Virus record (IMG/VR): IMGVR_UViG_3300029705_000088
Direction: 5' to 3' (one strand)
DNA from: a virus
Length of the DNA stretch: 23,327 bases
Shown here: positions 8,104 to 23,327 of the stretch, piece by piece
How positions within the stretch are numbered: position 1 is the first letter of the stretch
How the letters are laid out: every line of letters begins with the position of its first letter
Made by a program: the position numbers and the translations under genes
The notes under the pieces: model-generated
The model's input: the letters and a program-made list of their open reading frames with translations, nothing else
Databases searched by the model: none
Told to the model about the DNA's origin: nothing

Positions 8104-8132
8104 TTGACAAATTCAAAAAAGTGTGGTATAAT
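8104..8132 (+). promoter_or_regulatory. Sigma70-type promoter with TTTCGCAAAACC element
   Basis: ttgaca at 8104-8109 and tgtggtataat at 8122-8132. Confidence 0.8.
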
Positions 8133-8174
8133 ATATACATCCCCGATACAGGGGATAGAAAGGAATAAAACAAA

Positions 8175-8498: not shown

Positions 8499-8515
8499 AA
8501 ATTTTACTAAATCCC

Positions 8516-8544
8516 TTGACAAATAAGCAAAAGTGTGGTATAAT
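8516..8544 (+). promoter_or_regulatory. Sigma70-type promoter
   Basis: ttgaca at 8516-8521 and tgtggtataat ending at 8544. Confidence 0.8.
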
Positions 8545-8591
8545 AATAGTACCCCAATACAGGGGGCACTAAAAGAGAGAGGTAAAATAAA

Positions 8592-8849
8592 ATGACAAGA
8601 ATTGTAAAGCAAATGAAAATGGCAAAAATTTATGTTCCCGCTTGTTATGTTGATGGTGGACAAGGCTCTCGTGGCAACTGGACAAAAGAGACAATTTTTT
8701 ATACGGGTGCTTACACCAGCGAAACAGATATGCAGGAAAAATTTATTAAAGCAAAAGAAGAATGGGATAAAAAGAAAAAAGAATCGTGGGATACTTATTA
8801 TACAGAAGTAAAACTTATAGATTGGTGGGAAAATGTAGAAATTTTGTAA
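8592..8849 (+). CDS. Hypothetical protein (85 aa)
   Basis: Leader hairpin cccc aatacag ggggg. RBS agagaggtaaaataaaATG. Confidence 0.7.
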   Translation: MTRIVKQMKMAKIYVPACYVDGGQGSRGNWTKETIFYTGAYTSETDMQEKFIKAKEEWDKKKKESWDTYYTEVKLIDWWENVEIL

Positions 8850-8855
8850 AACCCC

Positions 8856-8884
8856 TTGACAAATCCGAAGAAATGTGATATAAT
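8856..8884 (+). promoter_or_regulatory. Sigma70-type promoter overlapping the end of the upstream CDS
   Basis: ttgaca at 8856-8861 and tgtgatataat ending at 8884. Confidence 0.8.
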
Positions 8885-8926
8885 AATAGTACCCCCAATA
8901 AAGGGGGGAGAAAGAGGTAAAATAAA

Positions 8927-9160
8927 ATGAAAGTTGCTGTTACACTTTATCGCACGATTGAAATGGATGTAAATGAAGAAGTTTTTGAAAGACTTCATGA
9001 AATCCATAAAGACCCTACCACTTTTGGAGAAGATGAAGATTATTCCGAAGCAAAAGAAATTATCACAAACAGACTGCTGGCACGCTGTGAACTTCATAAT
9101 GGTGAAGAAATTATCGGCGTGTATGCGGCGGAAGATGATATTCCGATTCTTGAATTTTAA
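8927..9160 (+). CDS. Hypothetical acidic small protein (77 aa)
   Basis: Leader hairpin ccccc aataaa gggggg. RBS agaaagaggtaaaataaaATG. Confidence 0.7.
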   Translation: MKVAVTLYRTIEMDVNEEVFERLHEIHKDPTTFGEDEDYSEAKEIITNRLLARCELHNGEEIIGVYAAEDDIPILEF

Positions 9161-9163
9161 TAA

Positions 9164-9200
9164 GGAGAGGGCGCAAGCCCCTCTCTTTCTTTTACTTTTG
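9164..9200 (+). terminator. Intrinsic terminator (ggagaggg cgcaag cccctctc followed by tttcttttactttt)
   Basis: GC stem followed by a T-run. Confidence 0.75.
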
Positions 9201-9472
9201 GCATTCATAATTTATTTACAAATTATTTATAAAAAACACTTGACTTTTGAGTCGCCCGCGGCCGGAGGTCACGGGCGAAATTTTGTCAAGAGATATCGTA
9301 TAAAAAAATTGTAAACATTTTATTAACAATCAAGTGAATTAGCCGTTTTCCCGTAATAAAAAATTAACAAATGAACATAGACTCGTTCACATATTATACC
9401 ATTACCAAAAATTGACAATCTGACTTGTTCTTGGATATTGAAAAAATTTTTTGAGAAATTTTGAAAAACCTC

Positions 9473-9501
9473 TTGACAAAAACGTGATTGTGTGGTATAA
9501 T
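9473..9501 (+). promoter_or_regulatory. Sigma70-type promoter with no ORF downstream (first of three tandem promoters)
   Basis: ttgaca at 9473-9478 and tgtggtataat at 9491-9501. Confidence 0.75.
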
Positions 9502-9579
9502 ATATATGTACCAAACAAAAGGATGCGCGGGGACGCCGAAAGCCACTCAAAAAAATTTGAAAAACTTTTCAAAAACCCC

Positions 9580-9608
9580 TTGACAAATCGCTCAAAGTAT
9601 GGTATAAT
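9580..9608 (+). promoter_or_regulatory. Sigma70-type promoter (class-A copy) driving an ORF-less structured transcript
   Basis: ttgaca at 9580-9585 and tataat at 9603-9608. Confidence 0.8.
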
Positions 9609-9614
9609 ATATAT

Positions 9615-9720
9615 GTCAGGGGCGAGGGTGAGTAAAACCTCGTAAAAAATCTCCTCATCAAGTGAAGTCCAAAATGCGATAAATTGACTTCAAATCTTGA
9701 TAGTATCGCAAAAAATTTTT
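9615..9720 (+). ncRNA. Candidate small non-coding RNA (about 105 nt): a 5' hairpin plus an H-type pseudoknot, ending in AAAAAATTTTT
   Basis: There is no ORF beyond a 10-codon one. The 5' hairpin is cgagg...cctcg (9623-9642). The pseudoknot has S1 at 9657-9669 paired with 9686-9701, and S2 tgcgata (9675-9681) paired with tatcgca (9704-9710), interleaved. Confidence 0.4.
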
Positions 9721-9741
9721 GAAAAACTTTTCAAAAACCCC

Positions 9742-9770
9742 TTGACAAATACCATAAAGTATGGTATAAT
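9742..9770 (+). promoter_or_regulatory. Sigma70-type promoter for cassette B
   Basis: ttgaca at 9742-9747 and tataat at 9765-9770. Confidence 0.8.
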
Positions 9771-9850
9771 ATATATACCGGGTGAGGGAAACCTACCACG
9801 GCAAACAAATTAAAAGGTTGGCAACCTAAACAGCTGAAAGGATTGATACC

Positions 9851-10249
9851 ATGGCTAACACTAATTCTACTCTCAACGCTACCGCAAAGAAGCTCACCAA
9901 GCGTGACCACTTCAACGCCCTCCTCGCTATCCCCTCTGTAGCATCTAACCCCACGCTCGTTGAATTCATTGAAAATGAGCTTGACCTACTGGCTCGTAAG
10001 AACGCTAAGCCGTCTGGCAAGCAGATGGAAAAGAAGGAAGCAAACGATGCGCTGAAGCAGGCAATGCTTGACTACCTCGCAAATGATGGCGGTCAGCACA
10101 CCGTTACTGACTTCATCAAGAATGTTCCCGAATGCGCTGGACTGTCCCAGCAGAGAATCACTGCGCTTGTCCGTCAGCTGGTAGAAGATGGCAAGATGGA
10201 AAAGGTGATTGAAAAGCGCGTTTCCTACTTCAAGCTGGCAGAGGTTTAA
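9851..10249 (+). CDS. Hypothetical protein (132 aa), cassette B gene 1, paralogue of 5750..6139
   Basis: The same structured leader ending gctgaaaggattgataccATG. About 60% identity to the cassette A protein by eye. C-ending codon bias. Confidence 0.8.
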   Translation: MANTNSTLNATAKKLTKRDHFNALLAIPSVASNPTLVEFIENELDLLARKNAKPSGKQMEKKEANDALKQAMLDYLANDGGQHTVTDFIKNVPECAGLSQQRITALVRQLVEDGKMEKVIEKRVSYFKLAEV

Positions 10250-10284
10250 TCCTCTGCCACGCCTAACCAAAAGAGGTGATGAAG

Positions 10285-10692
10285 ATGGAACTGACCCGAG
10301 CCGACAAAGCGCAAGTCAAGCGAATTCAAGAGGGCTTGCGCTGTACCGAAGAAGAAGCTCTTGAGGTTTTGTCCTATGACAAGGAAGTTGAGAAGGCTTC
10401 CGCTAATGACAGGCTGGCGTACGACCTTGACAAGGAGACAGAGAAGGAAGCGATGCGTATGGCTAACTGCCGCGACCGCAAGCCTACTGTTTACAATTTC
10501 TCCCAGCGTGAGCGCAAGGCAAATCCCACAAAGGGCGGAATAATCGCAGAATTGGCGGAGTTTTTGACAAAAAACAGTCAGTTTGCGACCGAAGATGTGG
10601 AAATTACCAACAAAGAACGGCAAATTGCGTTCAAAATTGGTGAAGATGCCTTTGAATTGACGCTTGTTCAGAAGCGAAAGCCCAAAAAGTAA
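10285..10692 (+). CDS. Hypothetical protein (about 136 aa), cassette B gene 2, paralogue of 6171..6527
   Basis: RBS aagagg. Candidate ATGs lie at 10279 and 10285; the track uses GTG at 10276. Confidence 0.7.
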   Translation: MELTRADKAQVKRIQEGLRCTEEEALEVLSYDKEVEKASANDRLAYDLDKETEKEAMRMANCRDRKPTVYNFSQRERKANPTKGGIIAELAEFLTKNSQFATEDVEITNKERQIAFKIGEDAFELTLVQKRKPKK

Positions 10693-10694
10693 AG

Positions 10695-10724
10695 AAAAGT
10701 GGGAATTTTTCCCACTTTTCACTT
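10695..10724 (+). terminator. Intrinsic terminator (aaaagtggga atttt tcccactttt)
   Basis: 10-bp stem followed by a T-run. Confidence 0.7.
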
Positions 10725-10749
10725 AAATTTTAGTCAAAAAGATGCAAAA

Positions 10750-11097
10750 ATGGCAGAAAAAGAGTTTCTTTATGTGGGTTTTTACCACGATACCGACAAA
10801 AATTTTGTTCTAAAGATTGGAACAACTAACGACCTAAAGCGCAGACAGGCAGAGCACACGCGCAATTATAGGAAAAGCCCTGAACACACAATGCCGCCAG
10901 ATGGCAAATTTACCTATTTATGGAAGCTGCCCCTTTCAAAATATAATACTCTGCGTTTTGAGGACAGAAACCGCCAAAAGTGGCAGGAAATGGGAATTGG
11001 TGAATATGTGCGGAACGACCGCTTTGTTCTCCATGAAATTCCACCACAGGTAGAAATTACCATCCGCAAAACTTATACAATCCCTCTACTGATGTAG
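10750..11097 (+). CDS. T5orf172/GIY-YIG-superfamily protein (115 aa), with no promoter of its own, inserted into copy B of the duplicated cassette
   Basis: FLYVGFYHDTDKNFVLKIGTTNDLKRRQAEH matches the GIY..YIG..R..H pattern and is paralogous to 1875..2240. The gene ends with TAG inside a terminator hairpin. Confidence 0.7.
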   Translation: MAEKEFLYVGFYHDTDKNFVLKIGTTNDLKRRQAEHTRNYRKSPEHTMPPDGKFTYLWKLPLSKYNTLRFEDRNRQKWQEMGIGEYVRNDRFVLHEIPPQVEITIRKTYTIPLLM

Positions 11098-11112
11098 AGG
11101 GATTTTCTTTTG
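11082..11112 (+). terminator. Intrinsic terminator (ccctctac tgat gtagaggg plus a T-rich tract) that contains the TAG stop
   Basis: Perfect 8-bp stem followed by attttcttttg. Confidence 0.65.
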
Positions 11113-11149
11113 TGCATAATGACGAAAATGCTGTGTTCATAATTTATTT

Positions 11150-11340
11150 ACAAAATATACTTGATTTGTTCAAACGCCCGCGACCGGAGGCCACGGGCGT
11201 TATTTTGTCAAGTGGTAATCTATACAAATTTTCAGAAATTTTTTTAACATTTTTGTACAAACCGCACAAATCCCGCAATTATGAACATTTTGTAAATAAA
11301 CAAGAATATCTATTGACATTTTTATAAAAATATGATATAA
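11150..11340. repeat. About 190-bp intergenic repeat element, copy 2 (homologue of 6590..6790)
   Basis: The same tttacaaaatatacttgatttgttcaaacgc, a GC hairpin (gcccgcgaccggaggccacgggcg), and ...caaatcccgcaattatgaacattttgtaaa. Confidence 0.8.
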
Positions 11341-11341
11341 T
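11313..11341 (+). promoter_or_regulatory. Sigma70-type promoter
   Basis: ttgaca at 11313-11318 and tgatataat ending at 11341. Confidence 0.8.
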
Positions 11342-11381
11342 ATATATACAGTAAAGAACCAACAGAAAGAGAGCAAATAAA

Positions 11382-11579
11382 ATGGATATGTGGATGAGCG
11401 ACCTTTTAGAAGCTACCGCAAGAGTAAAAGTACATAAAGGAAAAAATTTCTGTATCAAGTCTGCCCTTCCTGCGGTTGATGGCATTGTATTTGAAACTAC
11501 TTACTTCACTTACATTAAATGGTATCGCGCAGATGGACGCATTGAAGAACATTCTAAAGACGCATGGAGGAATAAATAA
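11382..11579 (+). CDS. Hypothetical protein (65 aa)
   Basis: RBS agagagcaaataaaATG. Confidence 0.65.
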   Translation: MDMWMSDLLEATARVKVHKGKNFCIKSALPAVDGIVFETTYFTYIKWYRADGRIEEHSKDAWRNK

Positions 11580-11580
11580 A

Positions 11581-11808
11581 ATGAATACACTTGTAATCAG
11601 CGAAAAGTTGATTGAATACTTTGAGCAGGAAGTAAAAGACGCAGAAAGAGCGCTTGAACGCAATCTTTACACGCCCCTTGAAATCGTAGATAACGCAAAA
11701 CAGCGAATGCTTGGAGCGACTACTCTGTGCCAGTATCTTGGTATTGAATATTTGTTCCTTGAAGCAAACTATGAAGCATACACAAAAAAACTTGAAAAAC
11801 TTTTATAA
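11581..11808 (+). CDS. Hypothetical protein (75 aa)
   Basis: ATG at 11581, in frame within the 11476..11808 ORF. RBS aggaataaataaaATG, with the stop and start adjacent. Confidence 0.65.
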   Translation: MNTLVISEKLIEYFEQEVKDAERALERNLYTPLEIVDNAKQRMLGATTLCQYLGIEYLFLEANYEAYTKKLEKLL

Positions 11809-11814
11809 AACCCC

Positions 11815-11843
11815 TTGACAAATCGCGCAAAGTATGGTATAAT
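11815..11843 (+). promoter_or_regulatory. Sigma70-type promoter (class-A copy)
   Basis: ttgaca at 11815-11820 and tataat at 11838-11843. Confidence 0.85.
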
Positions 11844-11887
11844 AATAGTACCCCCCAGAGAGGGGGGGAGAAAGAGAGTAAAATAAA

Positions 11888-12295
11888 ATGGAAAAAGTAA
11901 TGTATTTTATCGCAGAAGATGGCACGCAGTTTGAAGATGAATTTGACTGCGTACAGTATGAAGAAGAACTCCACATTAAGCAGGTGTTTGAACCTTTCTC
12001 CTGTTATGATATCAATGGACATCTTCTTGACACTAATGACGAGCATTTTGAATCCGATGATGTATATTATATTCTTGTAAAAGAAGATAATTACGAAGAT
12101 GGAAGTTATATGGAGCTGGATGATTTTATTTTTGATGGTGAATTACCTGCTCTTAGCCATGTTTTCAAAGATACTGATACCACGTTGATTTATTTCAATC
12201 GTAATTCTGACACTTGGGAAAACTGGCACGAAGAATTCAACAGGCTTACTGAAATGATGAAAATGTTTCAACTGTTTGCGGGGAAGGGCGAGTAA
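11888..12295 (+). CDS. Very acidic hypothetical protein (135 aa), a candidate DNA-mimic or anti-restriction type
   Basis: Leader hairpin cccccc agaga ggggggg. D and E residues heavily outnumber K and R residues. Confidence 0.75.
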   Translation: MEKVMYFIAEDGTQFEDEFDCVQYEEELHIKQVFEPFSCYDINGHLLDTNDEHFESDDVYYILVKEDNYEDGSYMELDDFIFDGELPALSHVFKDTDTTLIYFNRNSDTWENWHEEFNRLTEMMKMFQLFAGKGE

Positions 12296-12319
12296 TCGCC
12301 CTTCATGGAGGTAAAGAAA

Positions 12320-12475
12320 ATGACTTGTAAAGAATGCGGCTACTGTTGGAAAGAAGAGTGCGAGAAATACGCCCATTGCCACTTTGAAGGCCCGGAAGGT
12401 TGGGCACCTTGTGAGCAGGAAGAAGAGTACGAAGAAGAAGAAGATGAGGAGGATGATGAAGATGAAGCCGAATGA
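12320..12475 (+). CDS. Cys-rich small protein with a poly-acidic tail (51 aa), absent from the ORF track because it is under 60 aa
   Basis: Strong RBS ggaggtaaagaaaATG. Product is MTCKECGYCWKEECEKYAHCHFEGPEGWAPCEQEEEYEEEEDEEDDEDEAE. TGA at 12473-12475. Confidence 0.55.
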   Translation: MTCKECGYCWKEECEKYAHCHFEGPEGWAPCEQEEEYEEEEDEEDDEDEAE

Positions 12476-12731
12476 AGAAACTTTACTTGATTTAATGAAC
12501 GAATACAATGCTTTGAAACAGAAGCTTGCTAACGTTGAAAGTGCTATTAAATCACATCAAAAACAGGGCGCTAAAGAGCAGTTACGAACAGCTTTTGCTA
12601 TTTTGGAAAAAATTAACAATGACAACATTTTTGGTGATGACGATTATTATTCTGATGATTTGAATGAATATATCAATTTAACAACCATTGTTAATTGCCT
12701 TGGTTCATTTATTGAAGAAGTGGTCAAATGA
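12456..12731 (+). CDS. Hypothetical coiled-coil protein (about 91 aa); the start is uncertain (12444 to 12462) and it overlaps the previous gene in another frame
   Basis: RBS gaggagga lies upstream of a cluster of ATGs. The ORF runs 12384..12731. Confidence 0.6.
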   Translation: MKMKPNEETLLDLMNEYNALKQKLANVESAIKSHQKQGAKEQLRTAFAILEKINNDNIFGDDDYYSDDLNEYINLTTIVNCLGSFIEEVVK

Positions 12732-13210
12732 CCACTTCTTTTTCGTTATTTTATACAAAAATAATTTGTTTACAAATTATGATAGATTTGTTCACATTTG
12801 CGCCGCCCGATTGCGCTCGCGCAGGGCGGGATTTCCATTTTTTACCATATTTACAAAATTTTGCGGCGATTTCCAGGATTTTCCAGTCCAGCCAGATTTT
12901 CCCATATTCTACACCTGTCAAGCGGTCCGGGCGCGGGCGCTGCGGACCGAGTTCCCGTTCGGACCCCCATATGCGAATTTTTTGCTACTTCTAGCGACCC
13001 TCAGCCTATATGCGCATTTTCCTATAATTCTAGTACCCCAGCCAGCCGACCGGAATTGTAAAATTTTTGTAAAAATTTTTGTAAAATTTTTATGAACGCG
13101 CGATTTCTCCAGAGATACGCCAGTGCTTATCTATTGAGAGCTACGGCTTAAATAAAGACCCTCTCCCTCACATTTACTCAAAAATTTTTTTGCGTGGCTT
13201 AAAATGCCGA
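12732..13210. repeat. About 480-bp non-coding island with a GC-rich core (12800-13060), several repeat families, and the boundary between the two promoter classes
   Basis: Tandem repeats of about 42 bp lie at 12965-13006 and 13007-13048. A triple tgtaaaattttt repeat lies at 13056-13095. Hairpins include cggtccg..cggaccg, and atttcc(a)g direct repeats are present. Confidence 0.7.
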
Positions 13211-13213
13211 AAT

Positions 13214-13242
13214 TTGACTTTTTTAAAAATTTATGATATAAT
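13214..13242 (+). promoter_or_regulatory. Sigma70-type promoter, class B (ttgactttttt aaaaatt tatgatataat)
   Basis: ttgact at 13214-13219 and tataat at 13237-13242. The promoter plus leader is about 60 bp and nearly identical to 16085-16145. Confidence 0.8.
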
Positions 13243-13274
13243 ATATATACAAAATAAAAAAAGGAGATAAAATT

Positions 13275-13721
13275 ATGAATTACAATTCTAATGACATTCT
13301 TAAGATGATTCAGGAGGGCAAATCTGTAGATGATATTGCCAAGGAATTCACCGCCGCACTGAACGAGGCAAAAAAGATTGACGAAGCCAAGAGAGCAGAG
13401 GCTAAGGAAGAAGAGGCTAGAAAGAAGGTCCAGGAGAGGGCAGATAAGATTGCGGACATGGGCAAGATGAAGGATGCTATCGCAGCCTACATTAAGCGCT
13501 GGTACCCCAACCTTGCCGCCCAGTATAAGGATATTGATATCACCGCAGAAGACCTTGTTGATTTGGTTGATGAAACTGTTGCGGAAATGCGCGAAGCATT
13601 CTCTATGTTTGGTAATTTTGCTCATATGCTGAAGCCTGGCAATGCTACCCTCTCAATTAAGACTGATAAGTCTAATTTGGATAATGTTTTTGATACTTTC
13701 TTTAAGAACAATGGTATTTAA
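13275..13721 (+). CDS. Hypothetical protein (148 aa) with high-expression-like codon usage
   Basis: Strong RBS aaaggagataaaattATG. C/G-ending codons are enriched relative to the neighbouring genes. Confidence 0.85.
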   Translation: MNYNSNDILKMIQEGKSVDDIAKEFTAALNEAKKIDEAKRAEAKEEEARKKVQERADKIADMGKMKDAIAAYIKRWYPNLAAQYKDIDITAEDLVDLVDETVAEMREAFSMFGNFAHMLKPGNATLSIKTDKSNLDNVFDTFFKNNGI

Positions 13722-13727
13722 TATTTT

Positions 13728-13754
13728 AAGCCACGATTTTCGTGGCTTTTTTAT
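13728..13754 (+). terminator. Intrinsic terminator (aagccacg atttt cgtggctttttt)
   Basis: 8-bp stem followed by a T-run. Confidence 0.8.
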
Positions 13755-13832
13755 TTGATGTGAAAAGATGTTCGTAAAAATGTTTTGAGAGGGCTACAGA
13801 TTGCGAAAATTGGCAAATTGAACTATAAAATG

Positions 13833-13876
13833 AGAAAAAGAGAGACACAAGAAAATGTCTCTCTTTATTTTTTATT
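13833..13876. terminator. Bidirectional intrinsic terminator (agagagaca caagaaaa tgtctctct), flanked by an A-run and a T-run, between convergent transcription units
   Basis: 9-bp stem with aaaaag on the 5' side and ttatttttt on the 3' side. Confidence 0.7.
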
Positions 13877-14098
13877 AAGAAAGGATGAGGGATGACGATG
13901 ACGAGGGAAAAGTGATGAGTGTCTAGTGGAGCCGAACGGCACGACACCTCTCCAATTTTCGCAATTTTTATTACTTATTACTTTATTTACTTATTATTAT
14001 CTATATAATTATTATCTATTATCTATACAGTTGTTATCCATTATCAACCTATTACTTACTACCTACTACCTATTATCTATATTGTTACCTACCTACTA

Positions 14099-14299
14099 TC
14101 ACAACACCCAAATAACTCCCTGCCGCAACAACTTCCTTCTCTCCTTGCCAATCTCCTTAAACCTCTTCCTCTCCTCCGCCTCAAACCCTCTCAACAACCA
14201 ACATCCAAGAGCAGAAGAAAAAGAAACTCTTTTCAACACATACCTAACAACTGCGCCTAGCACCAAGCCAACTACTACACCTGCCGCGACCCCTATCAT
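14099..14299 (-). CDS. Small membrane protein (66 aa), the last gene of the minus-strand operon
   Basis: Its start overlaps the upstream stop as ATGA. It has an N-terminal hydrophobic helix and a basic C-terminus. Confidence 0.6.
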   Translation of the reverse strand: MIGVAAGVVVGLVLGAVVRYVLKRVSFSSALGCWLLRGFEAEERKRFKEIGKERRKLLRQGVIWVL

Positions 14300-14607
14300 A
14301 ACTTAACCTCTTTCAATTCCGCAAAAAACTTATCAACTACCGTACTATATTGACTAAAATAATTATCTTTTTCCTTTTCTTTCTCTTTCTTTAACTTTTC
14401 ATATACCCAACATTTATTGCTCCCAAACTCTTTAACTTTCATATCTAATCCTACTCTACCAACAACTTTACCTTTAAAAACTAACCACCTATCATCATCT
14501 TCAATAATAAAATAATTCTCTTTATCCTTATTCTTCTCATTCAAAAAATAATTATCTCTATCAATTAAATAAACATTTTTATAACCATACGTACCACAAT
14601 GCCTCAT
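14296..14607 (-). CDS. Hypothetical protein (103 aa)
   Basis: RBS aaaggtg precedes the ATG. The stop is TGA. Confidence 0.65.
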   Translation of the reverse strand: MRHCGTYGYKNVYLIDRDNYFLNEKNKDKENYFIIEDDDRWLVFKGKVVGRVGLDMKVKEFGSNKCWVYEKLKKEKEKEKDNYFSQYSTVVDKFFAELKEVKL

Positions 14608-14648
14608 GAGTTTTCAATTCACCTTTCTGAAAGGGTCCCTTTTTCATT

Positions 14649-14930
14649 TCATTTTTCAAATACATTCTATAAAATAGAATCCGCATCATCAAAATTAAAA
14701 TTCATACCCTATAAAAAAGGATTATCCTCTCTTTCATTTTTATTTTCAAATATATTATAGCATATTTTTTTATCTTTATCAACTCTTCTTTTATTTTCTA
14801 AAACAAAGAAAATTTTTCCAGTTGTTTCATCTATATACAATTCTTTTACTTTTCTATGAGGCTGCTTCGCAACCTCTGATAAACCTGAATGATAATCATT
14901 TTCACTTAATTTTACAAAACCGACTTCCAT
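14649..14930 (-). CDS. Hypothetical protein (93 aa) containing two in-frame TAG codons, consistent with amber being read as sense
   Basis: Strong RBS aaaaaggagaattcaaaATG. The frame is open from 14930 to TGA at 14649-14651, apart from TAG at 14709-14711 and 14667-14669. The track truncates this ORF at the first TAG. Confidence 0.55.
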
Positions 14931-14995
14931 TTTGAATTCTCCTTTTTCACTTCAGTTTTCCGCCCCTATCAACAGAAAAAAATTTTCTATAAGAA

Positions 14996-15033
14996 ATTTA
15001 TGTTCCAAGCGATAGCTGGAACATAAATTTCGC
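14996..15033. promoter_or_regulatory. Perfect palindrome (aaatttatgttcca agcgatagct tggaacataaattt) upstream of the minus-strand gene, a candidate operator
   Basis: 14-bp exact inverted arms. Confidence 0.5.
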
Positions 15034-15059
15034 TTTGTTAATTATTTAGTTTTTAGTAT

Positions 15060-15145
15060 TATTTAGATATAATATGAAAAATTACCCTTTTTTCCTTTTT
15101 ACTAACTATTAAAAATTGCCCTCACTAACTATTAAAAATTACCCT
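15060..15145. repeat. Three copies of the 24-bp motif (plus form ACTAACTATtAAAAATTrCCCTtt; minus form AAAGGGTAATTTTTAATAGTTAGT)
   Basis: Copies lie at about 15064-15084, 15091-15113 and 15124-15145. Confidence 0.75.
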
Positions 15146-15146
15146 T

Positions 15147-15830
15147 TTATTTCTTTTTACTATTATATACTAAAGATACATTTAATAATTTTTTCTTTGG
15201 TACTTTATTAATATAAATGGTTTCATAGTCAATTAATTTTGAATTATATAATAATTCTAAAGCGTGATTAATTATATCATAAGCTCTCTAATTATTTTTT
15301 ATATATATACCTATATGTTCTGCTATTTCATTCAAAGTAAAAATATAATTTTCCTACTATTTTAATCTTTTATTCTAATCTTCTTTATATTTATATTTCT
15401 AAACTAAATAAATATAAATTTTAATAATATGTTCCCGACAGTTATCCTATAAATATTCTAAAGTTGCTAAAGGAATATCTAAATAAATATTTTCTTTTAC
15501 TGGCAAATAATAATCTCCATTCTCTTTTTCCACTAAATACCCCTAATCTTTTAATGACTTCAAATGCGCTCTTAATGTTTTTGGACTTTTAATTTTTAAT
15601 TTTTCACACATATCTATTTGTTTTGGAATAATTGATTTCTTTACTACTGTTTCATATACTTCATAAGCCACACCCTTATCATCTTTTTTACAAACTTTTT
15701 CTGCTATTGAAATAGACTATAACAATCCATACAATTCACCATCTAATGTATTTGTATTTAAAAAAGTTTCATAATCTAATGTAGTATCCGCAGGAAACCT
15801 TTTTTCAATCTAATCTTTTGATTTTACCAC
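15147..15830 (-). CDS. Double winged-helix DNA-binding protein, RepA/replication-initiator-like (about 227 aa); the frame contains 8 in-frame TAG codons and no TAA or TGA
   Basis: RBS GGAGG, 7 nt, then GTG at 15830. The frame stays open to TAA at 15147-15149 apart from 8 TAGs. The translation carries two clean winged-helix motifs, MCEKLKIKSPKTLRAHLKSLKD*GYLVEKENGDYYLPV and FTLNEIAEHIGIYIKNN*RAYDIINHALELLYNSKLI. No ORF of at least 60 aa is called here in any frame. Confidence 0.6.
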
Positions 15831-15849
15831 AAGGAAACCTCCAATCTAA

Positions 15850-16065
15850 ATTTTACTAACTATGAAAAATTACCTTTCTAGTCGCACAATTATTTCAATT
15901 TCATTTATTTATATTTTACCTTTTTTGTCCAATATTTTTAGGTAATTTTACCTTTTTTAAAAGTAATATTCTAATAATATTTCTATTAAAAAATTAATAA
16001 AAATATTACTTACTAACTATGAAAAATTACCTAAAATTTTACTAACTATTAAATTTTACCCTTTT
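15850..16065. repeat. At least four further copies of the 24-bp motif family, between the divergent minus-strand operon and the plus-strand promoter
   Basis: ttttactaactatgaaaaattacctttc at 15851-15878, weaker copies at 15905-15960, then copies at 16007-16030 and 16035-16062. Confidence 0.75.
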
Positions 16066-16084
16066 CTAATTAACAATAACTCTA

Positions 16085-16113
16085 TTGACATTTATAAAAA
16101 AATATGATATAAT
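16085..16113 (+). promoter_or_regulatory. Sigma70-type promoter, class B
   Basis: ttgaca at 16085-16090 and tataat at 16108-16113. Near-identical to the 13214 promoter and leader. Confidence 0.8.
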
Positions 16114-16145
16114 ATATATACAAAATAAAAAAAGGAGATAAAATA

Positions 16146-16358
16146 ATGAAAATTACTTATAGTCAAAAATATTTCGTCATGTCTTTTAATGAACTTAACC
16201 CCGGAGATGCTTTCCTCTATCATGGTAATCTTTATCTAAAATTATATAAGTTAGGCTCAAATTCGGGCGACGCAGTTTCTCTTGAGAGTGGCCATACATT
16301 ATGGATTAATACTTATGAAGCAGTAGAAAAAGTAGATGTGGAGGTAGTAGTTAAATAA
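16146..16358 (+). CDS. Hypothetical small protein (70 aa)
   Basis: RBS aaaggagataaaataATG. It is a paralogue of the next gene. Confidence 0.75.
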   Translation: MKITYSQKYFVMSFNELNPGDAFLYHGNLYLKLYKLGSNSGDAVSLESGHTLWINTYEAVEKVDVEVVVK

Positions 16359-16561
16359 TGAATATTGTTTATAATAATACAAAACCTATGACGACTGTAT
16401 ATAGAGTTCGTTGCGGAAGTGTTTTTAGATGCGGCGATGAATGTTTTATGAAAATTAATTGTGAAGAACCCAATGCTGTAAATATTAAAACCGGCGAATT
16501 AAGACATTTTCAAACTGGAGAAATTGTAGAATCTGTAATAGCTAAAGTTGTAATTGAATAA
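16358..16561 (+). CDS. Hypothetical small protein (67 aa), a paralogue of 16146..16358
   Basis: TAATG start/stop overlap. The shared pattern is G.aF..g..y.K......NaV.l.sG....I.t.E.Ve.V. Confidence 0.7.
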   Translation: MNIVYNNTKPMTTVYRVRCGSVFRCGDECFMKINCEEPNAVNIKTGELRHFQTGEIVESVIAKVVIE

Positions 16562-16573
16562 AAGTATCGTAAT

Positions 16574-17041
16574 ATGAAAGAAATTAAATATTGTAAAACT
16601 TGCGGTTTCCGAGACCCCTAGCAACCTGTATGTCAGTTGCTCGGGCATTAGATAAACCCAGAAATTGATTATTGTTCTCGGCATAATGCCGAACCTTTCA
16701 CCTGCGCGCAATGTCACCGCATTTTAACTTTACCAATTTTCCTAACTCCTGGAGGCGCAATCTGTGATGAATGCCGACTAGCCTTATCTACTTGCGCTGG
16801 TTGCCGCAATTCTTCAACTTGTCTTTTTGAAAGCGACCCATCTCCAGTGCTGAAAGTAATTCAACAACAAATCCGTCAGGGAAACATGGTAATTCAACAA
16901 CAAGTAAAAAACCCGTTGCGCATCCAAATTACCTGTGAAAAAGGTTGTCCTTGTTACGATAAAGAAAATGGTTGCCGTAGACAATTAAATTCATGTGAGA
17001 ACCACAAATCTATTATCCAGGAGGAAGAAACTAATGATTGA
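16574..17041 (+). CDS. Cys-rich protein (155 aa) with two in-frame TAG codons, missing from the ORF track as a full-length ORF
   Basis: The frame is open from ATG 16574 to TGA 17039-17041 apart from TAG at 16619-16621 and 16649-16651. It contains CxxC-type pairs throughout, and the track ORF 16847..17041 is its 3' end. Confidence 0.55.
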
Positions 17042-17375
17042 CCCCAATCGTGTCTTAGACTTCATTGACCATTTCACATAGGCTGGCGACCGCAAACAAG
17101 TAATTGAATGCTTCACTTGCGGCAATTGCTTCTGGTTCGCTTATATTCTCCATGGACGTTTCTCTGCCGAACCAAATGTCCAATGTGAAATTATGTATGA
17201 CGAAGTAGAAAATCATTTCGCCACAAAAATTGATAATGAAATTTATGATATTACCGGCATCGTAACCAATCAATACGATTGGATTGCGTGGTCTGACTTA
17301 TGGAAGAAAGACCCTTCTTTAAGCAAACGTATTATTCGTGATTGTGTAAAACAGGAGATAATAGAAAATGAATAA
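17034..17375 (+). CDS. Hypothetical protein (113 aa) with one in-frame TAG (17079-17081)
   Basis: Strong RBS caggaggaagaaactaATG at 17034. The ATG overlaps the upstream stop. The frame is otherwise open to TAA at 17375, and the track shows only the distal 60 aa. Confidence 0.65.
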
Positions 17376-17613
17376 TTTTTTTAAACTTGTAATTTCTGAC
17401 CGCGTAGATTATATTAATCTTAATTTTGTAGAACAAGTTAATATCAGTAATGCTTGTGATAGTAAGAAAAGACCTACAGTAACATTCTATTATAGGAGTG
17501 GAAAAACTTCAGAATATAATATGGGCAAAGAAGATTTACAAAAATTAATTCAAATCTTAGAGGAAAAAGATATTTATATTGAACCAATAGTAGCGAGGAA
17601 ATTAAATGAGTAA
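17368..17613 (+). CDS. Hypothetical protein (81 aa)
   Basis: Its ATG overlaps the upstream stop. The stop is TAA. Confidence 0.7.
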   Translation: MNNFFKLVISDRVDYINLNFVEQVNISNACDSKKRPTVTFYYRSGKTSEYNMGKEDLQKLIQILEEKDIYIEPIVARKLNE

Positions 17614-17881
17614 ATTTAACATCTATTATGCGGGAACTCATTAGGCAGAATTCCAAGAGGAATTGGAATTTGAGACACCGGCCGCCGCACTTGATTACGC
17701 GGAGAAACGAGCCATTGAGGATTATGAAAGTAATTGCGGCGGCAACGGTTATCTATCTTGGGAAGAGTGTCGTGAGGAATTAATTCATTCAGGCGAAGAA
17801 GAAATAACTGATGAGGATGTGGATAATTATTACAGAGAAGTAATATACTCCACAATACAATACCATGTAGAAAAAATATAA
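17606..17881 (+). CDS. Hypothetical acidic protein (91 aa) with one in-frame TAG (17642-17644)
   Basis: RBS gaggaaattaaATG at 17606 overlaps the upstream TAA (ATGAGTAA). The frame is open to TAA at 17881, and the track begins the ORF at TTG 17663. Confidence 0.6.
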
Positions 17882-17961
17882 TCATAAAAATTCCTTTCTA
17901 ATTTAAGTAATATAATTATAACATAAAATTTATTTAAAATCAATTAAAGGAGATAATATAA

Positions 17962-18345
17962 ATGACTTTTTGGTTTCTTTTTGGTTTTATTGGACTTATA
18001 ATTGGCATTTTTTTACTTGTAATCAGCTTTAAAAATGATTTTAAAGGGGAATATATTGTCATGATAGTTGGTCTTATTTTAACTGCGGCAGGTGTAATTG
18101 CGCTTGTTAGTGTGGCAGATACCAGTATTGATTATAATCTATTTGAAACCAGTTTTGAATTACAGCAAGAAGTATATCATAATATTCAGGAAAATGATAA
18201 CTGGTACCCCGACATTTACAATGTCGCAGATGTAATATCCGCAAATAAAAAACTGTGTGATTATCAGGCTAGACGCAAAATGTATGGTTTCTTTTCTATT
18301 ATCCCCGAACGTGTTCTTGATATTAAGCCTATTGGACTTGATTAA
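17962..18345 (+). CDS. Membrane protein (127 aa, two TM helices)
   Basis: RBS aaaggagataatataaATG. The N-terminus is hydrophobic. Confidence 0.8.
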   Translation: MTFWFLFGFIGLIIGIFLLVISFKNDFKGEYIVMIVGLILTAAGVIALVSVADTSIDYNLFETSFELQQEVYHNIQENDNWYPDIYNVADVISANKKLCDYQARRKMYGFFSIIPERVLDIKPIGLD

Positions 18346-18362
18346 TTTGCGGAGGCATAACT

Positions 18363-18425
18363 ATGTCTGTTGTGGCGGCTATCCTTATAGCATTCATGTT
18401 CTTTGACGTATGGACCGATATCTAA
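18363..18425 (+). CDS. Possible 20-aa hydrophobic micropeptide (MSVVAAILIAFMFFDVWTDI)
   Basis: Strong RBS ggaggcataactATG. A terminator follows. Confidence 0.35.
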   Translation: MSVVAAILIAFMFFDVWTDI

Positions 18426-18430
18426 ATATT

Positions 18431-18466
18431 AATCCCTCATACAAGAAAGTATGAGGGATTTTTGAT
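18431..18466 (+). terminator. Intrinsic terminator (aatccctcatac aagaaa gtatgagggatt plus a T-run)
   Basis: 12-bp stem. Confidence 0.8.
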
Positions 18467-18490
18467 TTTTATAAAAAAATATGATATAAT
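18462..18490 (+). promoter_or_regulatory. Sigma70-type promoter, class B (ttgatt ... tatgatataat)
   Basis: ttgatt at 18462-18467 and tataat at 18485-18490. Confidence 0.75.
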
Positions 18491-18515
18491 ATTTATAGAA
18501 AAATAAAGAAAGGAA

Positions 18516-18788
18516 ATGATAAAAATGCGTAAATGGCATATTTATACAAGTAATTTCCACCTTTTACGATGGGGTGATTCCATTCTTGAATTTGATGACT
18601 ATGAGTCTGCTGTAGCGTTCGTAAAATCAATTATCCATTCGTCATTTATGGGCGAAGAAGAGTGCGCGCATATGTCTATTGCTAAAGATATTGTATATCT
18701 CAAAGCTGGTGATAACTGTATCAATGCTACTGGACTTGTAATTGCTTACGATGTAGAATATGATATTGTGCGGCTTGTGCGCGCCTAA
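18516..18788 (+). CDS. Hypothetical protein (90 aa); the start may be 18525
   Basis: RBS aaagaaaggaa. Confidence 0.75.
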   Translation: MIKMRKWHIYTSNFHLLRWGDSILEFDDYESAVAFVKSIIHSSFMGEEECAHMSIAKDIVYLKAGDNCINATGLVIAYDVEYDIVRLVRA

Positions 18789-18799
18789 AGGAAAATAAT

Positions 18800-19114
18800 A
18801 TGAATACTTATGATGTAGACGCAAGAATCGGATATGGATATATTTTTACTGCTGAAGATATAGAATCATTAAGCCTTGAAACACAACGAGAAATGCGTGC
18901 GTGTAAAAGATTTTGTTATGAAATGTATGATGGTACTGTATTCTTCGGCATTTTACTTGAATGTAGCTATAAATATGATATAATTTCTTGGAGCAATTAT
19001 ACCAATTTATCTACAGAAGATGAAAAAGATTTAAAAGAAGATTTTTATAGAATTTTTAAAGGAAATGTTGAATTTAATTTCTATTTAATGAGATTTAAAT
19101 TTACTGATTATTAA
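18800..19114 (+). CDS. Hypothetical protein (104 aa)
   Basis: RBS aaaggaaaataatATG. Confidence 0.8.
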   Translation: MNTYDVDARIGYGYIFTAEDIESLSLETQREMRACKRFCYEMYDGTVFFGILLECSYKYDIISWSNYTNLSTEDEKDLKEDFYRIFKGNVEFNFYLMRFKFTDY

Positions 19115-19127
19115 AAAGGAGAATAAT

Positions 19128-19421
19128 ATGAATACTATTAACCTTAATAATATCGCTGAATATAAGTCTGAAGACTTAAAGGTTATGATTGATGCTCTTC
19201 AGAATGAATTAGAATCTCGTGAAGATGCACGCAAAGAACAGCTTTATTATGAAATTCATTGCGCAGTATCTACACTTTTTAATGAATTTCCTGATACTAA
19301 ATTCTATGTTAATGGATACAATCATGATTATGGCGTTCATTTAACTGTTTGTCTGAATAATCTTAATTTCACCAGCATTACCGATAAAGTAGAAGAAGCA
19401 AAGGGAGATGATATCTTTTAA
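19128..19421 (+). CDS. Hypothetical protein (97 aa)
   Basis: RBS aaaaaggagaataatATG. Confidence 0.8.
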   Translation: MNTINLNNIAEYKSEDLKVMIDALQNELESREDARKEQLYYEIHCAVSTLFNEFPDTKFYVNGYNHDYGVHLTVCLNNLNFTSITDKVEEAKGDDIF

Positions 19422-20161
19422 TGGTGGCTAAAAGTTTTAAAGATTTTGAAATTTTATGCGAACCTTATGAAATCAGTAAAAAGATGTATGTGCGCGTGCG
19501 CAATCCTAAAACAAAGACCGAACGACAAGTGCGCTGGTATTCAGAAGATGAATATTATAAACTTTATCCAGAAGAGAAAGAAACTGTAAAAGTTCATGAT
19601 ATTTATTACAAACCGCAAAAAGATGTTCTTGGATTTGCGAATGGATTTATCTATATCTTTGATAAAGATATTAATGAGGAAGATGAGCTTTTTGATTGGT
19701 TTCGTATGTATTGCCGCAGATGTACCCGTTTTTGGGGGTGGTATTTTCCGGGCACTGAAACTCTCCCCGATAATCTTCCAACAGAAGTTAATGTCATTAA
19801 ATTAAAATGGGAAGAAGTTGGTAATGATGATGGAAAATTAAAGCCAGAAGACAAAGTAATTGCGGCAGTAGATGCGGCACGCTACCCCGCAGACAATTCA
19901 TCCTCACATGTTGGTTCTATTGGAGAAAGATTAGACCTTACTCTTACTGTAATTAGTGCTATTAAACTTGAAAACAGTTATGGTGTGGGTACATTACATA
20001 CTTTTGAAGATGCTTGCGGCAATCAATATACTTGGATGACTAATGCGAAGAGCTGGGAACCGGGTACAATTAGAAAAATCCGCGGAACAGTAAAAGCGCA
20101 TTCTACCTATAAAGGAAAGCCGCAGACAATTCTTACAAGATGTTCTGAAATAAAATCTTAA
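19421..20161 (+). CDS. Hypothetical protein (246 aa)
   Basis: TAATG overlap with the upstream gene. A long ORF with typical codon usage. Confidence 0.8.
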   Translation: MVAKSFKDFEILCEPYEISKKMYVRVRNPKTKTERQVRWYSEDEYYKLYPEEKETVKVHDIYYKPQKDVLGFANGFIYIFDKDINEEDELFDWFRMYCRRCTRFWGWYFPGTETLPDNLPTEVNVIKLKWEEVGNDDGKLKPEDKVIAAVDAARYPADNSSSHVGSIGERLDLTLTVISAIKLENSYGVGTLHTFEDACGNQYTWMTNAKSWEPGTIRKIRGTVKAHSTYKGKPQTILTRCSEIKS

Positions 20162-20162: not shown

Positions 20163-20191
20163 TTGATTTTTTATAAAAAATATGATATAAT
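20163..20191 (+). promoter_or_regulatory. Sigma70-type promoter, class B
   Basis: ttgatt at 20163-20168 and tataat at 20186-20191. Confidence 0.75.
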
Positions 20192-20225
20192 ATATATAGA
20201 AAATCAAAAGAGGAGAAAATAAAAT

Positions 20226-21919: not shown

Positions 21920-23327
21920 ATGAGAAAAGAAAGTGTGAGATATATGAATTCTTATCCTTACGAATCACTTACAACTAATGAAATTGATATGATGTATTTC
22001 CGCATTCAGGAAAATGCTTTTGATGATGAAGTAAAAGAAATTTGTGATATGGTTCATCTTCTTCGTTATTGGAACCATAATAAACAATGGCTATTTGAAA
22101 AATTTGGTAACAAATTAATTCTTGAAAAAGAAATTAAATTTGAGAAATCTTATGATATGCTTATTGAAGAAGTTGAAAATGTAATGTTTGAGAATCCTAC
22201 TGTAGAAATAAAAAACTTTACTCAAGCATTTAATGAATTATTTTATAAATGGCGTTATTCTGATTTTGAAACAACTTGTCCTCTTAAGGAGTATGATGTT
22301 GTGCGTGAATTGATGTGGTCTGATAATCTTGCTGTTAATACTTGGAATGGTGATAAAAACTTTAATATTCCTACTCCTGATGGAAGATTTATTCAGATGA
22401 ATCCTGGCTGTAAAGTTAGTAAAATGCTTGGTAAGATTGCGACAGCTTATAATCTTCCTAATTATGAAGAATTCCGTATTGCGCACTCTATGATTCTTAA
22501 CCAGAAAGAAGTTAAAGGAAAGCTTTGTCTTTCTATTCATCCTCTTGATTATATGACCATGAGTGATAATGATAGTAATTGGGAAAGTTGTATGAGCTGG
22601 GATAATAAGGGAGATTATAGATGCGGCACCATTGAAATGATGAATTCTCCGATGGTAGTTGTAGCATATCTTGCCGCAAGTACTCCTATGACATTTACCT
22701 ATTCTTCTGATGAATATCTCTGGTCTAATAAAAAGTGGAGAGAACTTTTCATTGTTAATGAAAATATGATTTGTAGTGTAAAACCATATCCTTATGCGAA
22801 TGAATCATTAACTTTTACTTGTCTTGATTGGCTTAAAGAAATTGCTGGGGCAGACGCATATTCTTCTAAAAAATGTCAATTTAGTTCATGGAAAGATGAT
22901 AATATTATTGCGGAAACTGGTCATAGAGTAAATCTTCATTTTTATACTAATAATATGTATAATGATTTTTACACTTGTCTGCATTATGTTTATTTAAATA
23001 AAAATATTCACGATACAGATATTACTACTTCCTATTCTGGTGAATTAATCTGTATGTGTTGCGGCAAGGATGTAGCACATTTTTCTGAAAATTACAATTT
23101 ACTTTGTGATGACTGTAATAATGTTAGAATTTGTAGTCATTGTGGAGAAACAATTTACTCAAATGATGAATGGTATGAAGTAGATGGAGAAATTGTTTGT
23201 AGTTGCTGCTATGATAACACTTGTAGTTGTGATGAATGCGGCGATTGTCATTTCTCTGACAATATGGTAGTTGTAAAAATCGCAATTGACCATGATAAAC
23301 TTACTGCACAGTATGTTACTCTTTGTT
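21920..23327 (+). CDS. Large hypothetical protein, 3'-truncated by the window edge (more than 460 aa), with Cys-rich CxxC repeats towards the C-terminus
   Basis: The frame is open from ATG 21920 (or 21944) to the window end and has no stop. It is probably absent from the track for that reason. Confidence 0.7.
   Translation, partial: MRKESVRYMNSYPYESLTTNEIDMMYFRIQENAFDDEVKEICDMVHLLRYWNHNKQWLFEKFGNKLILEKEIKFEKSYDMLIEEVENVMFENPTVEIKNFTQAFNELFYKWRYSDFETTCPLKEYDVVRELMWSDNLAVNTWNGDKNFNIPTPDGRFIQMNPGCKVSKMLGKIATAYNLPNYEEFRIAHSMILNQKEVKGKLCLSIHPLDYMTMSDNDSNWESCMSWDNKGDYRCGTIEMMNSPMVVVAYLAASTPMTFTYSSDEYLWSNKKWRELFIVNENMICSVKPYPYANESLTFTCLDWLKEIAGADAYSSKKCQFSSWKDDNIIAETGHRVNLHFYTNNMYNDFYTCLHYVYLNKNIHDTDITTSYSGELICMCCGKDVAHFSENYNLLCDDCNNVRICSHCGETIYSNDEWYEVDGEIVCSCCYDNTCSCDECGDCHFSDNMVVVKIAIDHDKLTAQYVTLC

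Follow-up and report, generated by a model that had tools for sequence, protein, structure and literature searches.

The window examined here, 23,327 nucleotides (nt) of the IMG/VR virus record IMGVR_UViG_3300029705_000088, carries between positions 14,649 and 17,881 five open reading frames (ORFs) that are interrupted by amber (TAG) codons and by no other stop codon. The original prediction, made from the letters of the DNA, had proposed that TAG is read as sense in these genes. Recounting the five frames (Table 1), we obtained 15 in-frame TAG codons and not a single TAA or TGA across 679 codons, with TAA or TGA as the terminal stop of each ORF. The predicted absence of TAA and TGA thus held, as did the TAG counts given for four of the ORFs, while 15147-15830 contains nine TAG codons and not eight. 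Judged by the off-frame stop rate, 679 codons without TAA or TGA would arise by chance with P ~ 1e-26. The +1 and +2 frames of the same genes contain 62 TAA, 52 TGA, and 24 TAG, in line with the earlier argument that an accidental frame would hit TAA at least as often as TAG, and these counts give P ~ 4e-12 for all 15 in-frame stops being TAG. Shine-Dalgarno matches (GGAGG, AGGAG, AGGAGG, or GAGG) lie ahead of four starts, all but the ATG at 16574, which narrows the claim that each gene possesses a strong ribosome binding site (RBS). The start/stop overlaps expected of coupled genes were found at three junctions, each of 8 nt (17034/17041, 17368/17375, and 17606/17613). An assembly artefact can be excluded: six contigs from JGI and ENA assemblies were compared with the window, and each proved identical or nearly so, never showing more than a single mismatch over the 5-12.7 kilobases (kb) of overlap; one window protein is recorded in at least 24 contigs.

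Table 1. Coordinates of the features discussed (positions in the window; aa, amino acids; GC, guanine plus cytosine content).
Feature	Coordinates	Strand	Details
93-aa ORF	14649-14930	(-)	Two in-frame TAG, residues 74 and 88; alternative 73-aa standard-code gene ending at TAG 14709-14711
227-aa winged-helix-like protein gene	15147-15830	(-)	Nine in-frame TAG, residues 7, 38, 96, 128, 144, 152, 158, 159, and 181; one CAA/CAG codon; GC ~0.20
155-aa cysteine-rich protein gene	16574-17041	(+)	Two in-frame TAG, residues 16 (16619-16621) and 26 (16649-16651)
113-aa YunG-like phage protein gene	17034-17375	(+)	One in-frame TAG, residue 16 (17079-17081)
91-aa ORF	17606-17881	(+)	One in-frame TAG, residue 13; alternative start TTG 17663 (residue 20), 72 aa
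Operon with three TAG-bearing ORFs	16146-18345	(+)	Promoter 16085-16120, terminator 18431-18460
Consensus promoter, class B, AT-rich spacer	16085-16120	(+)	TTGACA-17-TATAAT with TATG extended -10; ahead of operon 16146-18345
Intrinsic terminator	18431-18460	(+)	Closes operon 16146-18345
Five 20-nt direct repeats, ACTAACTAT(G/T)AAA(A/T)(A/T)TT(A/G)CC	15101, 15124, 15855, 16012, 16041 (span 15101-16060)	(+)	
Consensus promoter copies (examples)	123-158, 2565-2600, 4605-4640, 9742-9777, 13214-13249, 16085-16120, 20163-20198	(+)	At least 19 copies, range 97-21938
Promoter-dense small-gene region	97-13249	(+)	17 of the 19 promoters, each ahead of one to three small genes
Gene with TAG stop in its own terminator	10699/10750-11097	(+)	TAG 11095-11097 in hairpin 11078-11113; code-15 call extends to 11142

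Retranslation under genetic code 15, with TAG as sense, followed by homology searches gave matches that cross the TAGs in two of the five ORFs, 16574-17041 and 17034-17375. For the former, the TAG-free part of the 155-aa product (residues 27-155) collected 407 homologues from a library of 1.84 billion proteins, mostly 145-165 aa long, in which the equivalent of residue 27 lies at residue 25-30. When the full 155-aa ORF was aligned, the invariant residues Cys7, Cys10, and Cys20 fell before or between the two TAGs, and no in-frame start codon occurs from 16652 to 16847, i.e., from the second TAG to codon 92. Because the invariant cysteines precede or separate the TAGs and no alternative start is available, we regard read-through of 16574-17041 as demonstrated at the level of sequence comparison. 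In the latter, whose ATG has AGGAGG 9 nt upstream, the 113-aa product matches the Pfam YunG-like family PF24591 over residues 18-78 (E = 3.6e-11) and phrog_4814 over residues 6-79 (E = 1.2e-10), the second of these matches crossing TAG16. The first in-frame start past TAG16 lies at 17193 (residue 54), and since the matches precede this start or span the TAG, the alignments demonstrate read-through of 17034-17375 at the same level. Public gene calls treat the contig likewise: the ENA-derived calls have read-through lengths (155, 113, 91, 383, and 291 aa), and the collection's calls render TAG as Q in the homologous genes that were checked. The JGI standard-code calls give short ORFs at the TAG-bearing loci.

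For the 227-aa gene, the case for read-through is strong and mainly statistical, 227 codons without TAA or TGA having a chance of ~2e-9 when computed from the off-frame TAA/TGA rate. The gene starts at a GTG with GGAGG 7 nt upstream; the ENA call is a 154-aa version that starts at ATG 15611 and contains seven TAGs. The original prediction described a winged helix split by one of the TAGs, and the stretch LKSLKD-TAG-GYLVEKENGDYY is indeed present, and its TAG, TAG96, falls within a weak match to Pfam HTH_11 that covers residues 74-108 (E = 2.5e-5). PHROGs and PDB sequence searches returned no family stronger than HTH_11, and the earlier label "Rep-like" for this protein found no support in these or in Pfam. 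With Gln at the TAG positions, one code-15 stretch of the protein reads LKSLKDQGYLVEK, and 9 of its 10 Gln codons are TAG. The five 20-nt repeats (zero expected in a search of the window with this pattern) sit on both sides of the gene and adjoin the 16085 promoter on its upstream side, where they are possible operator or iteron sites, perhaps for the 227-aa protein.

To place these genes in their genome, we joined fetched loci into a continuous sequence that reaches ~8 kb beyond the left end of the window and 18 kb beyond its right end, to which an IMG/VR contig of the same phage (L031) added a further 10 kb on the left. The genome assembled amounts to at least 97 kb, and close relatives measure 160-200 kb; window proteins were placed on 40-41-kb contigs and on a 91-kb ENA contig, and a neighbouring protein on a 186.5-kb contig. 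Left of the window, on the minus strand, lies a packaging and structural module with large terminase, portal, and further head genes. The terminase (580 aa) shows 56% identity with its counterparts in Enterococcus phages H1 and VRE9_4, 52-53% with the terminases of Geobacillus E3 and Alicyclobacillus KKP_3916, and 41% with that of the code-15 phage Phass-1, and the 537-aa portal matches phrog_2739 (E = 5.5e-88). Right of the window follow a peptidase, two paralogous proteins of 391 and 524 aa, an AT-rich module, and an array of 17 transfer RNA (tRNA) genes, among which lie genes for an AAA ATPase and for endolysin-like and tail-fibre-like proteins. In IMG/VR, 145 contigs encode a related terminase, the 80 best of which are 70-99% identical; many are 125-201 kb long and one is 239 kb. 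The terminase, the portal family, the tail-fibre-like and endolysin-like matches, and these 145 relatives identify the element as a phage, and the source of the window is very probably a large tailed bacteriophage of gut or rumen type that uses genetic code 15. Its host would be a low-GC member of the Bacillota, as suggested by the hosts of the terminase relatives, by the TRTG extended -10 motif of its promoters (see below), which is typical of Gram-positive promoters, and by metagenome-assembled genome bins with distant relatives, labelled Erysipelotrichaceae and Mollicutes.

In 69 code-15 gene calls covering ~49 kb, the per-gene tabulation that had been proposed as a check returned 57 TAA, 12 TGA, and 0 TAG stops, so TAG is never needed as a stop in these calls and is not a general terminator. 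Among genes read in the standard code, at most three end in TAG once fragmented genes are excluded, one of them inside a terminator hairpin. In-frame TAG occurs in 15 of the 69 genes. Among the TAG-bearing genes of the genome, the terminase and the portal have nine each, other head genes two to nine, the YonG-like protein four, and the tail-fibre-like protein six; in the AT-rich module, the glycosyltransferase and a 291-aa protein have seven each and a 176/196-aa protein 8 to 10, depending on the start chosen. The expectation that recoding is confined to a subset of genes therefore stood, but not as a single block, given that modules with TAG are dispersed along 60 kb or more and include structural genes outside the window. 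Full-length homologues of the family-2 glycosyltransferase (GT2), at 38-47% identity, align through all seven TAGs to the C-terminus and themselves lie on TAG-recoded contigs, one of them 199 kb long. None of the 69 genes contains an in-frame TGA, and TGA is the stop of 12, unlike in the TGA-recoded codes (4/25); recoding of TGA or TAA in the left part of the window, suspected from its short ORFs, was rejected, as the genes there are simply small and end in TAA or TGA.

The AT-rich module forms an island (27480-30098 in window coordinates; 16829-19447 of locus L002) with a GC content of 0.17-0.19 and three genes, the GT2 gene included, of 7-10 TAG each; the pair formed by GT2 and a 284-aa gene is syntenic on a 199-kb TAG-recoded contig, L012. 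The two paralogous proteins, of 524 aa (21920-23327 in the window, the gene continuing to 23494) and 391 aa (25978-27153), are 28% identical (E = 6e-22), have in common an "LS(I/V)HPLDY...NW.SC" motif and C-terminal CxxC pairs, and match a single family, phrog_18912.

The original prediction held that the inserted amino acid cannot be read from the sequence, and conserved sites of the terminase allowed us to go further. TAG67 aligns with the invariant Q of the FYQRxFLR motif in all six reference phages, five of them cultured, and TAG225 aligns with Q in four of the six, as does one TAG of the YonG-like protein. We then tallied the terminase codons in the 80 best of the 145 IMG/VR relatives. 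Site 67 was TAG in 27, CAA in 49, and CAG in 4 of them, and site 225 was TAG in 36, CAA in 30, and CAG in 14, with no other codon at either position; site 321 was TAG in 35, CAA in 23, CAG in 6, and AAA or AAG in 15. Because conserved terminase sites alternate between TAG, CAA, and CAG only, we read TAG as glutamine, synonymous with CAA and CAG. Counting it so raises the Gln content of the TAG-bearing genes from 2.3 to 4.1%, and the 227-aa protein is nearly devoid of Gln unless TAG encodes it. Over the first 352 codons of the terminase, the number of TAGs ranges from 0 to 10 across the same 80 relatives (L030-L109).

A search with ARAGORN and Rfam found no tRNA in the window. The 17-tRNA array starts ~8 kb to its right and runs to ~18 kb (9853-18130 of locus L015 and 3074-13371 of L017; ~31.2-41.5 kb in window coordinates). 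Three candidates for a suppressor were rejected here: the tRNA nearest the window on this side, a 77-nt molecule of class I shape, has the anticodon loop CUUAGGA, hence the anticodon UAG, and reads the Leu codon CUA; an Rfam tRNA match at L015 11479-11543 is tRNA-like but degenerate (GCA loop, poor acceptor stem); and the incomplete tRNA with which L017 ends is Thr(UGU). The 77-nt tRNA is conserved in relatives, and the array also includes a tRNA-Ser-like gene with the rare anticodon ACU. Within the array, a 49-aa ORF (L015 12120-12269, at ~33.5 kb) resembles the C-terminal half of Pfam ArfA at 24.6 bits, against a cut-off of 25.5 (E = 1.8e-5). ArfA serves in alternative ribosome rescue and recruits RF2, and should the resemblance be genuine, such a factor would match a need to free ribosomes that have run past TAG stops.

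A tRNA of the required anticodon was found in relatives just beyond the point where the examined sequence ends. The contig L023 matches the final 2.8 kb of the examined genome at 91.5-93% identity and continues with tRNA-Thr, a 117-aa gene, tRNA-Ser(UGA), and then a tRNA with anticodon CUA (Rfam tRNA, 53.7 bits) preceded by an exact copy of the consensus promoter. L022, which is collinear at 71-89% identity, has at the same place, behind TTGACA-17-TATAAT, a 74-nt CUA tRNA with the U1-A72 pair characteristic of tRNA-Gln. CUA tRNAs lie as well in the arrays of the more distant relatives L110 and L111, so that each of the four relatives with an examined tRNA array has one. From the synteny with these relatives, we infer that the genome itself probably carries a CUA tRNA ~19 kb right of the window end.

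The CUA tRNAs of L023 (3563-3657, 95 nt) and L110 (16626-16715, 90 nt) are homologous to each other and unusual in form: the variable arm is long (20 nt or more) and forms a hairpin, positions 1 and 72 do not pair, the discriminator base is G73, and the CCA end is not encoded. L022 has, in addition, an 88-nt long-arm tRNA with the anticodon UUG, and these phages may possess a family of class-II-shaped, Gln-type tRNAs. Exact patterns of both relatives' CUA tRNAs gave no usable match in viral contigs, and the L023 pattern had no exact match in GTDB genomes.

TAG is avoided in the promoter-dense part of the window. We found 19 consensus promoters of the sigma-70/sigma-A type, all on the plus strand, where 0.01 would be expected by chance; their form is TTGACA, 17 nt, and TATAAT followed by ATATATA, usually with a TRTG extended -10. 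Class A promoters, with a GC-containing spacer and an upstream AAAACCCC element (AAAACC(C/T)C), are present in 15 copies between 97 and 11848, and class B promoters, with an AT-only spacer, lie at 2565, 6772, 11313, 13214, 16085, 18462, 20163, and 21873. Class B promoters stand ahead of the TAG-bearing operon (16085) and ahead of the CUA tRNA in relatives, where exact copies of the 16085-type motif precede the tRNA of both L022 and L023, and they also stand ahead of TAG-free units. The same promoter motif precedes tRNA genes right of the window. In the promoter-dense region, 26 gene calls contain one in-frame TAG in total, and the ratio of TAG to CAA plus CAG is 1 to 65, against 53 to 169 elsewhere in the genome (Fisher P = 4e-6 for the depletion). 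The layout of this left region resembles that of early genes transcribed by the host polymerase, from which an early timing would follow.

As the original prediction had noted, the left-hand genes end in TAA or TGA and, in one instance, in a TAG within a terminator hairpin. This TAG, the one in-frame TAG counted in the promoter-dense region, forms part of the 3' arm of the hairpin AATCCCTCTA-ctgatg-TAGAGGGATT, which is followed by TTTCTTTTG, and the code-15 call extends the 10750 gene by 15 codons to the TAA at 11142, past the T-tract of the terminator. A ribosome that read through this TAG would reach the end of the terminated transcript. Because the TAG lies in the gene's own terminator hairpin, TAG apparently still means stop for the 10750-11097 transcript.

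We propose that a phage-encoded amber-suppressor tRNA with the anticodon CUA would translate TAG as glutamine, TAA and TGA remaining stops. The promoter-dense left 14 kb, being nearly free of TAG, would then be translatable by an unmodified host, whereas the genes in which TAG is common, i.e., those for packaging and structure, the AT-rich glycosyltransferase module, the small mid-window genes, and the DNA-binding protein, would yield full-length products only once the suppressor tRNA is present. The data support such a division between genes that an unmodified host can translate and genes that would need a phage tRNA; the uneven use of TAG may serve timing. The earlier label "late" holds for the structural module outside the window and is unproven for the five window genes.

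A number of observations weigh against this proposal or limit its reach. No CUA tRNA was found in the ~67 kb of the genome examined, the 17-tRNA array and the terminal partial tRNA-Thr included, nor was a release-factor or aminoacyl-tRNA-synthetase gene seen in that part. The TAG-bearing operon of the window shares its host-type kind of promoter with TAG-free genes. Most TAG sites in the poorly conserved proteins (GT2, the 155-aa protein, and g352) align with variable residues and not clearly with Gln. Read-through is, moreover, unproven for two of the five ORFs: in the 93-aa ORF, the 19-codon extension past the first TAG is statistically not significant, and the 73-aa standard-code model is equally possible; in the 91-aa ORF, a standard-code model from the TTG also fits, while the ATG start has in its favour a GAGG RBS and the overlap of 8 nt with the preceding gene.

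The unusual tRNAs and the two promoter classes admit a more elaborate version of the proposal. The suppressor may be an undescribed, long-arm kind of tRNA, even though the terminase sites point to Gln, and with class B promoters serving both this tRNA and TAG-rich genes, that of the iteron-flanked DNA-binding protein among them, and class A promoters driving TAG-free genes only, expression would follow a promoter-coupled cascade gated by the tRNA instead of an early/late split. We offer this version tentatively and think it, on the whole, unlikely.

Recoding could also operate without any switch. The host or the infected cell would then always read TAG as Gln, and the uneven use of TAG would reflect base composition, with TAG in AT-rich and CAG in GC-richer genes. 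In keeping with this, TAG density falls with the GC content of the gene (Spearman rho = -0.31, P = 0.01), the relatives' suppressor stands behind a strong host-type promoter that is expected to fire at once, and one promoter class is common to TAG-free and TAG-bearing units. Yet the TAG within its own terminator hairpin makes sense only as a stop there, and the depletion of TAG relative to CAA plus CAG in the promoter-dense region extends to AT-rich genes (GC 0.25-0.34), which also lack TAG. Hosts of such phages are, furthermore, reported to use the standard code (bioRxiv 10.1101/2021.08.26.457843). We consider a constant reading of TAG improbable.

The identity of the amino acid raises a further alternative, namely that TAG is read as sense with another residue in place of Gln, for example Tyr, Ser, or Leu. 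The class II long arm of a relative's suppressor brings to mind synthetases that ignore the anticodon, the CUA tRNAs of L023 and L110 do have the long, hairpin-forming variable region described above, and some TAG sites of GT2 correspond to Y, F, S, or N in homologues. This reading is very improbable in view of the two conserved terminase sites, which alternate with CAA and CAG only in the 80 relatives and are an invariant Gln in cultured phages, and of the 227-aa protein, which would be left with a single Gln. Besides the unpaired 1:72 and G73, the L023 and L110 tRNAs have G2:C71, G10, C34, U35, and A37, a set of features that would favour GlnRS.

That the TAGs are true stops, with the five ORFs as pseudogenes, fragments, or chance frames and the short standard-code ORFs as the expressed genes, is scarcely credible. 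The short JGI calls and the acceptable standard-code models of the 93- and 91-aa genes would suit it, but it would require interruption by TAG alone to have arisen by accident (P ~ 4e-12), would place conserved residues and domain matches where no start can reach them without passing a TAG, and would destroy the essential terminase and portal, and the TAGs in question recur across many independent assemblies and in relatives. Pyrrolysine, finally, can be dismissed as next to impossible: ARAGORN's label "tRNA-Pyl" for the CUA tRNAs is set by the anticodon alone, none of the four has the compact tRNA-Pyl shape (6-base-pair anticodon stem and 3-nt variable loop) in the ARAGORN diagrams, no Pyl-pathway family appears among the precomputed Pfam matches of the called genes, and the TAG sites are Gln codons, with a TAG density of up to 4% of codons.

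Glutamine insertion by a CUA tRNA has a laboratory counterpart in the amber suppression of Escherichia coli, where the supE tRNA-Gln has a CUA anticodon and where GlnRS mischarges suppressors with a weakened 1:72 pair and G73. As there, the CUA tRNA would compete with RF1 at UAG and insert Gln, and the L023 and L110 tRNAs show the unpaired 1:72 and the G73. Unlike laboratory suppression, recoding here would be a natural, genome-wide coding strategy involving dozens of essential sites, and the relatives' long variable arm is absent from canonical tRNA-Gln.

TAG recoding as found here is an already documented phage phenomenon, and public gene calls already translate the contig accordingly. The NCBI taxonomy includes a "Caudoviricetes code 15 clade," and code-15 gut phages comprise Lak megaphages, crAss-like phages, and the Jade, Sapphire, Agate, Garnet, and Amethyst clades of Borges et al. 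(bioRxiv 10.1101/2021.08.26.457843); for crAss-like phages, proteomic proof of TAG recoding is reported (PMC9523058). Such phages are described as having scattered alternatively coded modules, large genomes, suppressor tRNAs in arrays, and clades that mix recoded and nonrecoded members (bioRxiv 10.1101/2021.08.26.457843). The likeness to known recoded phages that the original prediction pointed out is apparent in the homology through TAGs, the absence of TAG stops, and the CUA tRNA of syntenic relatives. In common with the clades of that study, the phage has TAG in structural and packaging genes and in scattered modules, keeps TAA and TGA as stops, and has some TAG-free blocks; a suppressor tRNA-CUA lies in a tRNA array, here seen in relatives; and TAG-rich and TAG-free members occur in one clade, the terminase having 0-10 TAG in 80 relatives. 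With Jade, Sapphire, and Agate in particular, the comparison covered the relatives' size of 160-200 kb and the scattered TAG modules, and both are compatible. The phage differs in what bears TAG within the window, where a host-type promoter precedes small accessory genes and the gene of a DNA-binding protein instead of a classical late lysis or structural cassette. It also differs in that the part of this genome examined showed neither an RF2 nor a synthetase gene.

Another known system that comes close is phAss-1 (proposed Phassvirus), with 136 kb, 36 tRNAs, three of them tRNA-SUP-CTA, and TAG in 41 of 147 ORFs (28%) (PMC10607447). Both have a large siphovirus-type genome, a big tRNA array, TAG read as Gln by the same terminase argument, and TAG in about a quarter of the genes (15 of 69 here), and their terminases are related. 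The relatives found here are larger, and phages that use the standard code, namely those of Enterococcus, Geobacillus, and Alicyclobacillus (120-142 kb), have terminases more similar (52-56%) to the present one than that of phAss-1 is. Because the terminase identity to phAss-1 is only 41% and INPHARED yielded no nucleotide match, the phage is not a Phassvirus.

Further searches and features concern the window as a whole. Megablast of the entire window against INPHARED phages returned no match, and Rfam detected no RNA family in it, which excludes ribosomal or other noncoding RNA as the cause of its GC-richer stretches. Scans of metagenome and viral contigs with the 94-, 155-, 394-, and 286-aa proteins and with an AAA-ATPase alignment gave nothing usable. 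The left part contains an internal duplication (5732-6139 and 9833-10249) of paralogous ~130-aa genes, 81-89% identical in nucleotide sequence in parts, and duplicated intergenic segments that include a terminator and a promoter (6566-6817 and 11108-11358, ~250 nt; 4574-4680 and 5606-5712, 107 nt). Dense 11-nt repeats of the ACAAATTGTGA/AAC type, tandem and interspersed with 11- and 22-nt spacing, fill the noncoding stretch 423-810 and recur at 2281-2325 and 4191-4251; they are possibly a protein-binding array or an origin.

The established picture of code-15 phages is unchanged by these findings. What may be new, and is partly supported, is the long-arm CUA tRNA in relatives together with the arrangement of promoter classes, both largely outside the coordinates of the five ORFs. 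For annotation, the standard code shreds about a fifth of this phage's genes, among them the terminase, the portal, the glycosyltransferase module, and the five window genes, and translation table 15 is needed. The phage adds one more large amber-recoded lineage, probably infecting Bacillota and abundant in IMG/VR. With the same gene bearing 0 to 10 TAGs in close relatives, the lineage offers good material on the gain and loss of recoding, and its TAG-free promoter array, the TAG stop within a terminator, and the long-arm CUA tRNA make it a system suited to the hypothesis that recoding serves timing.

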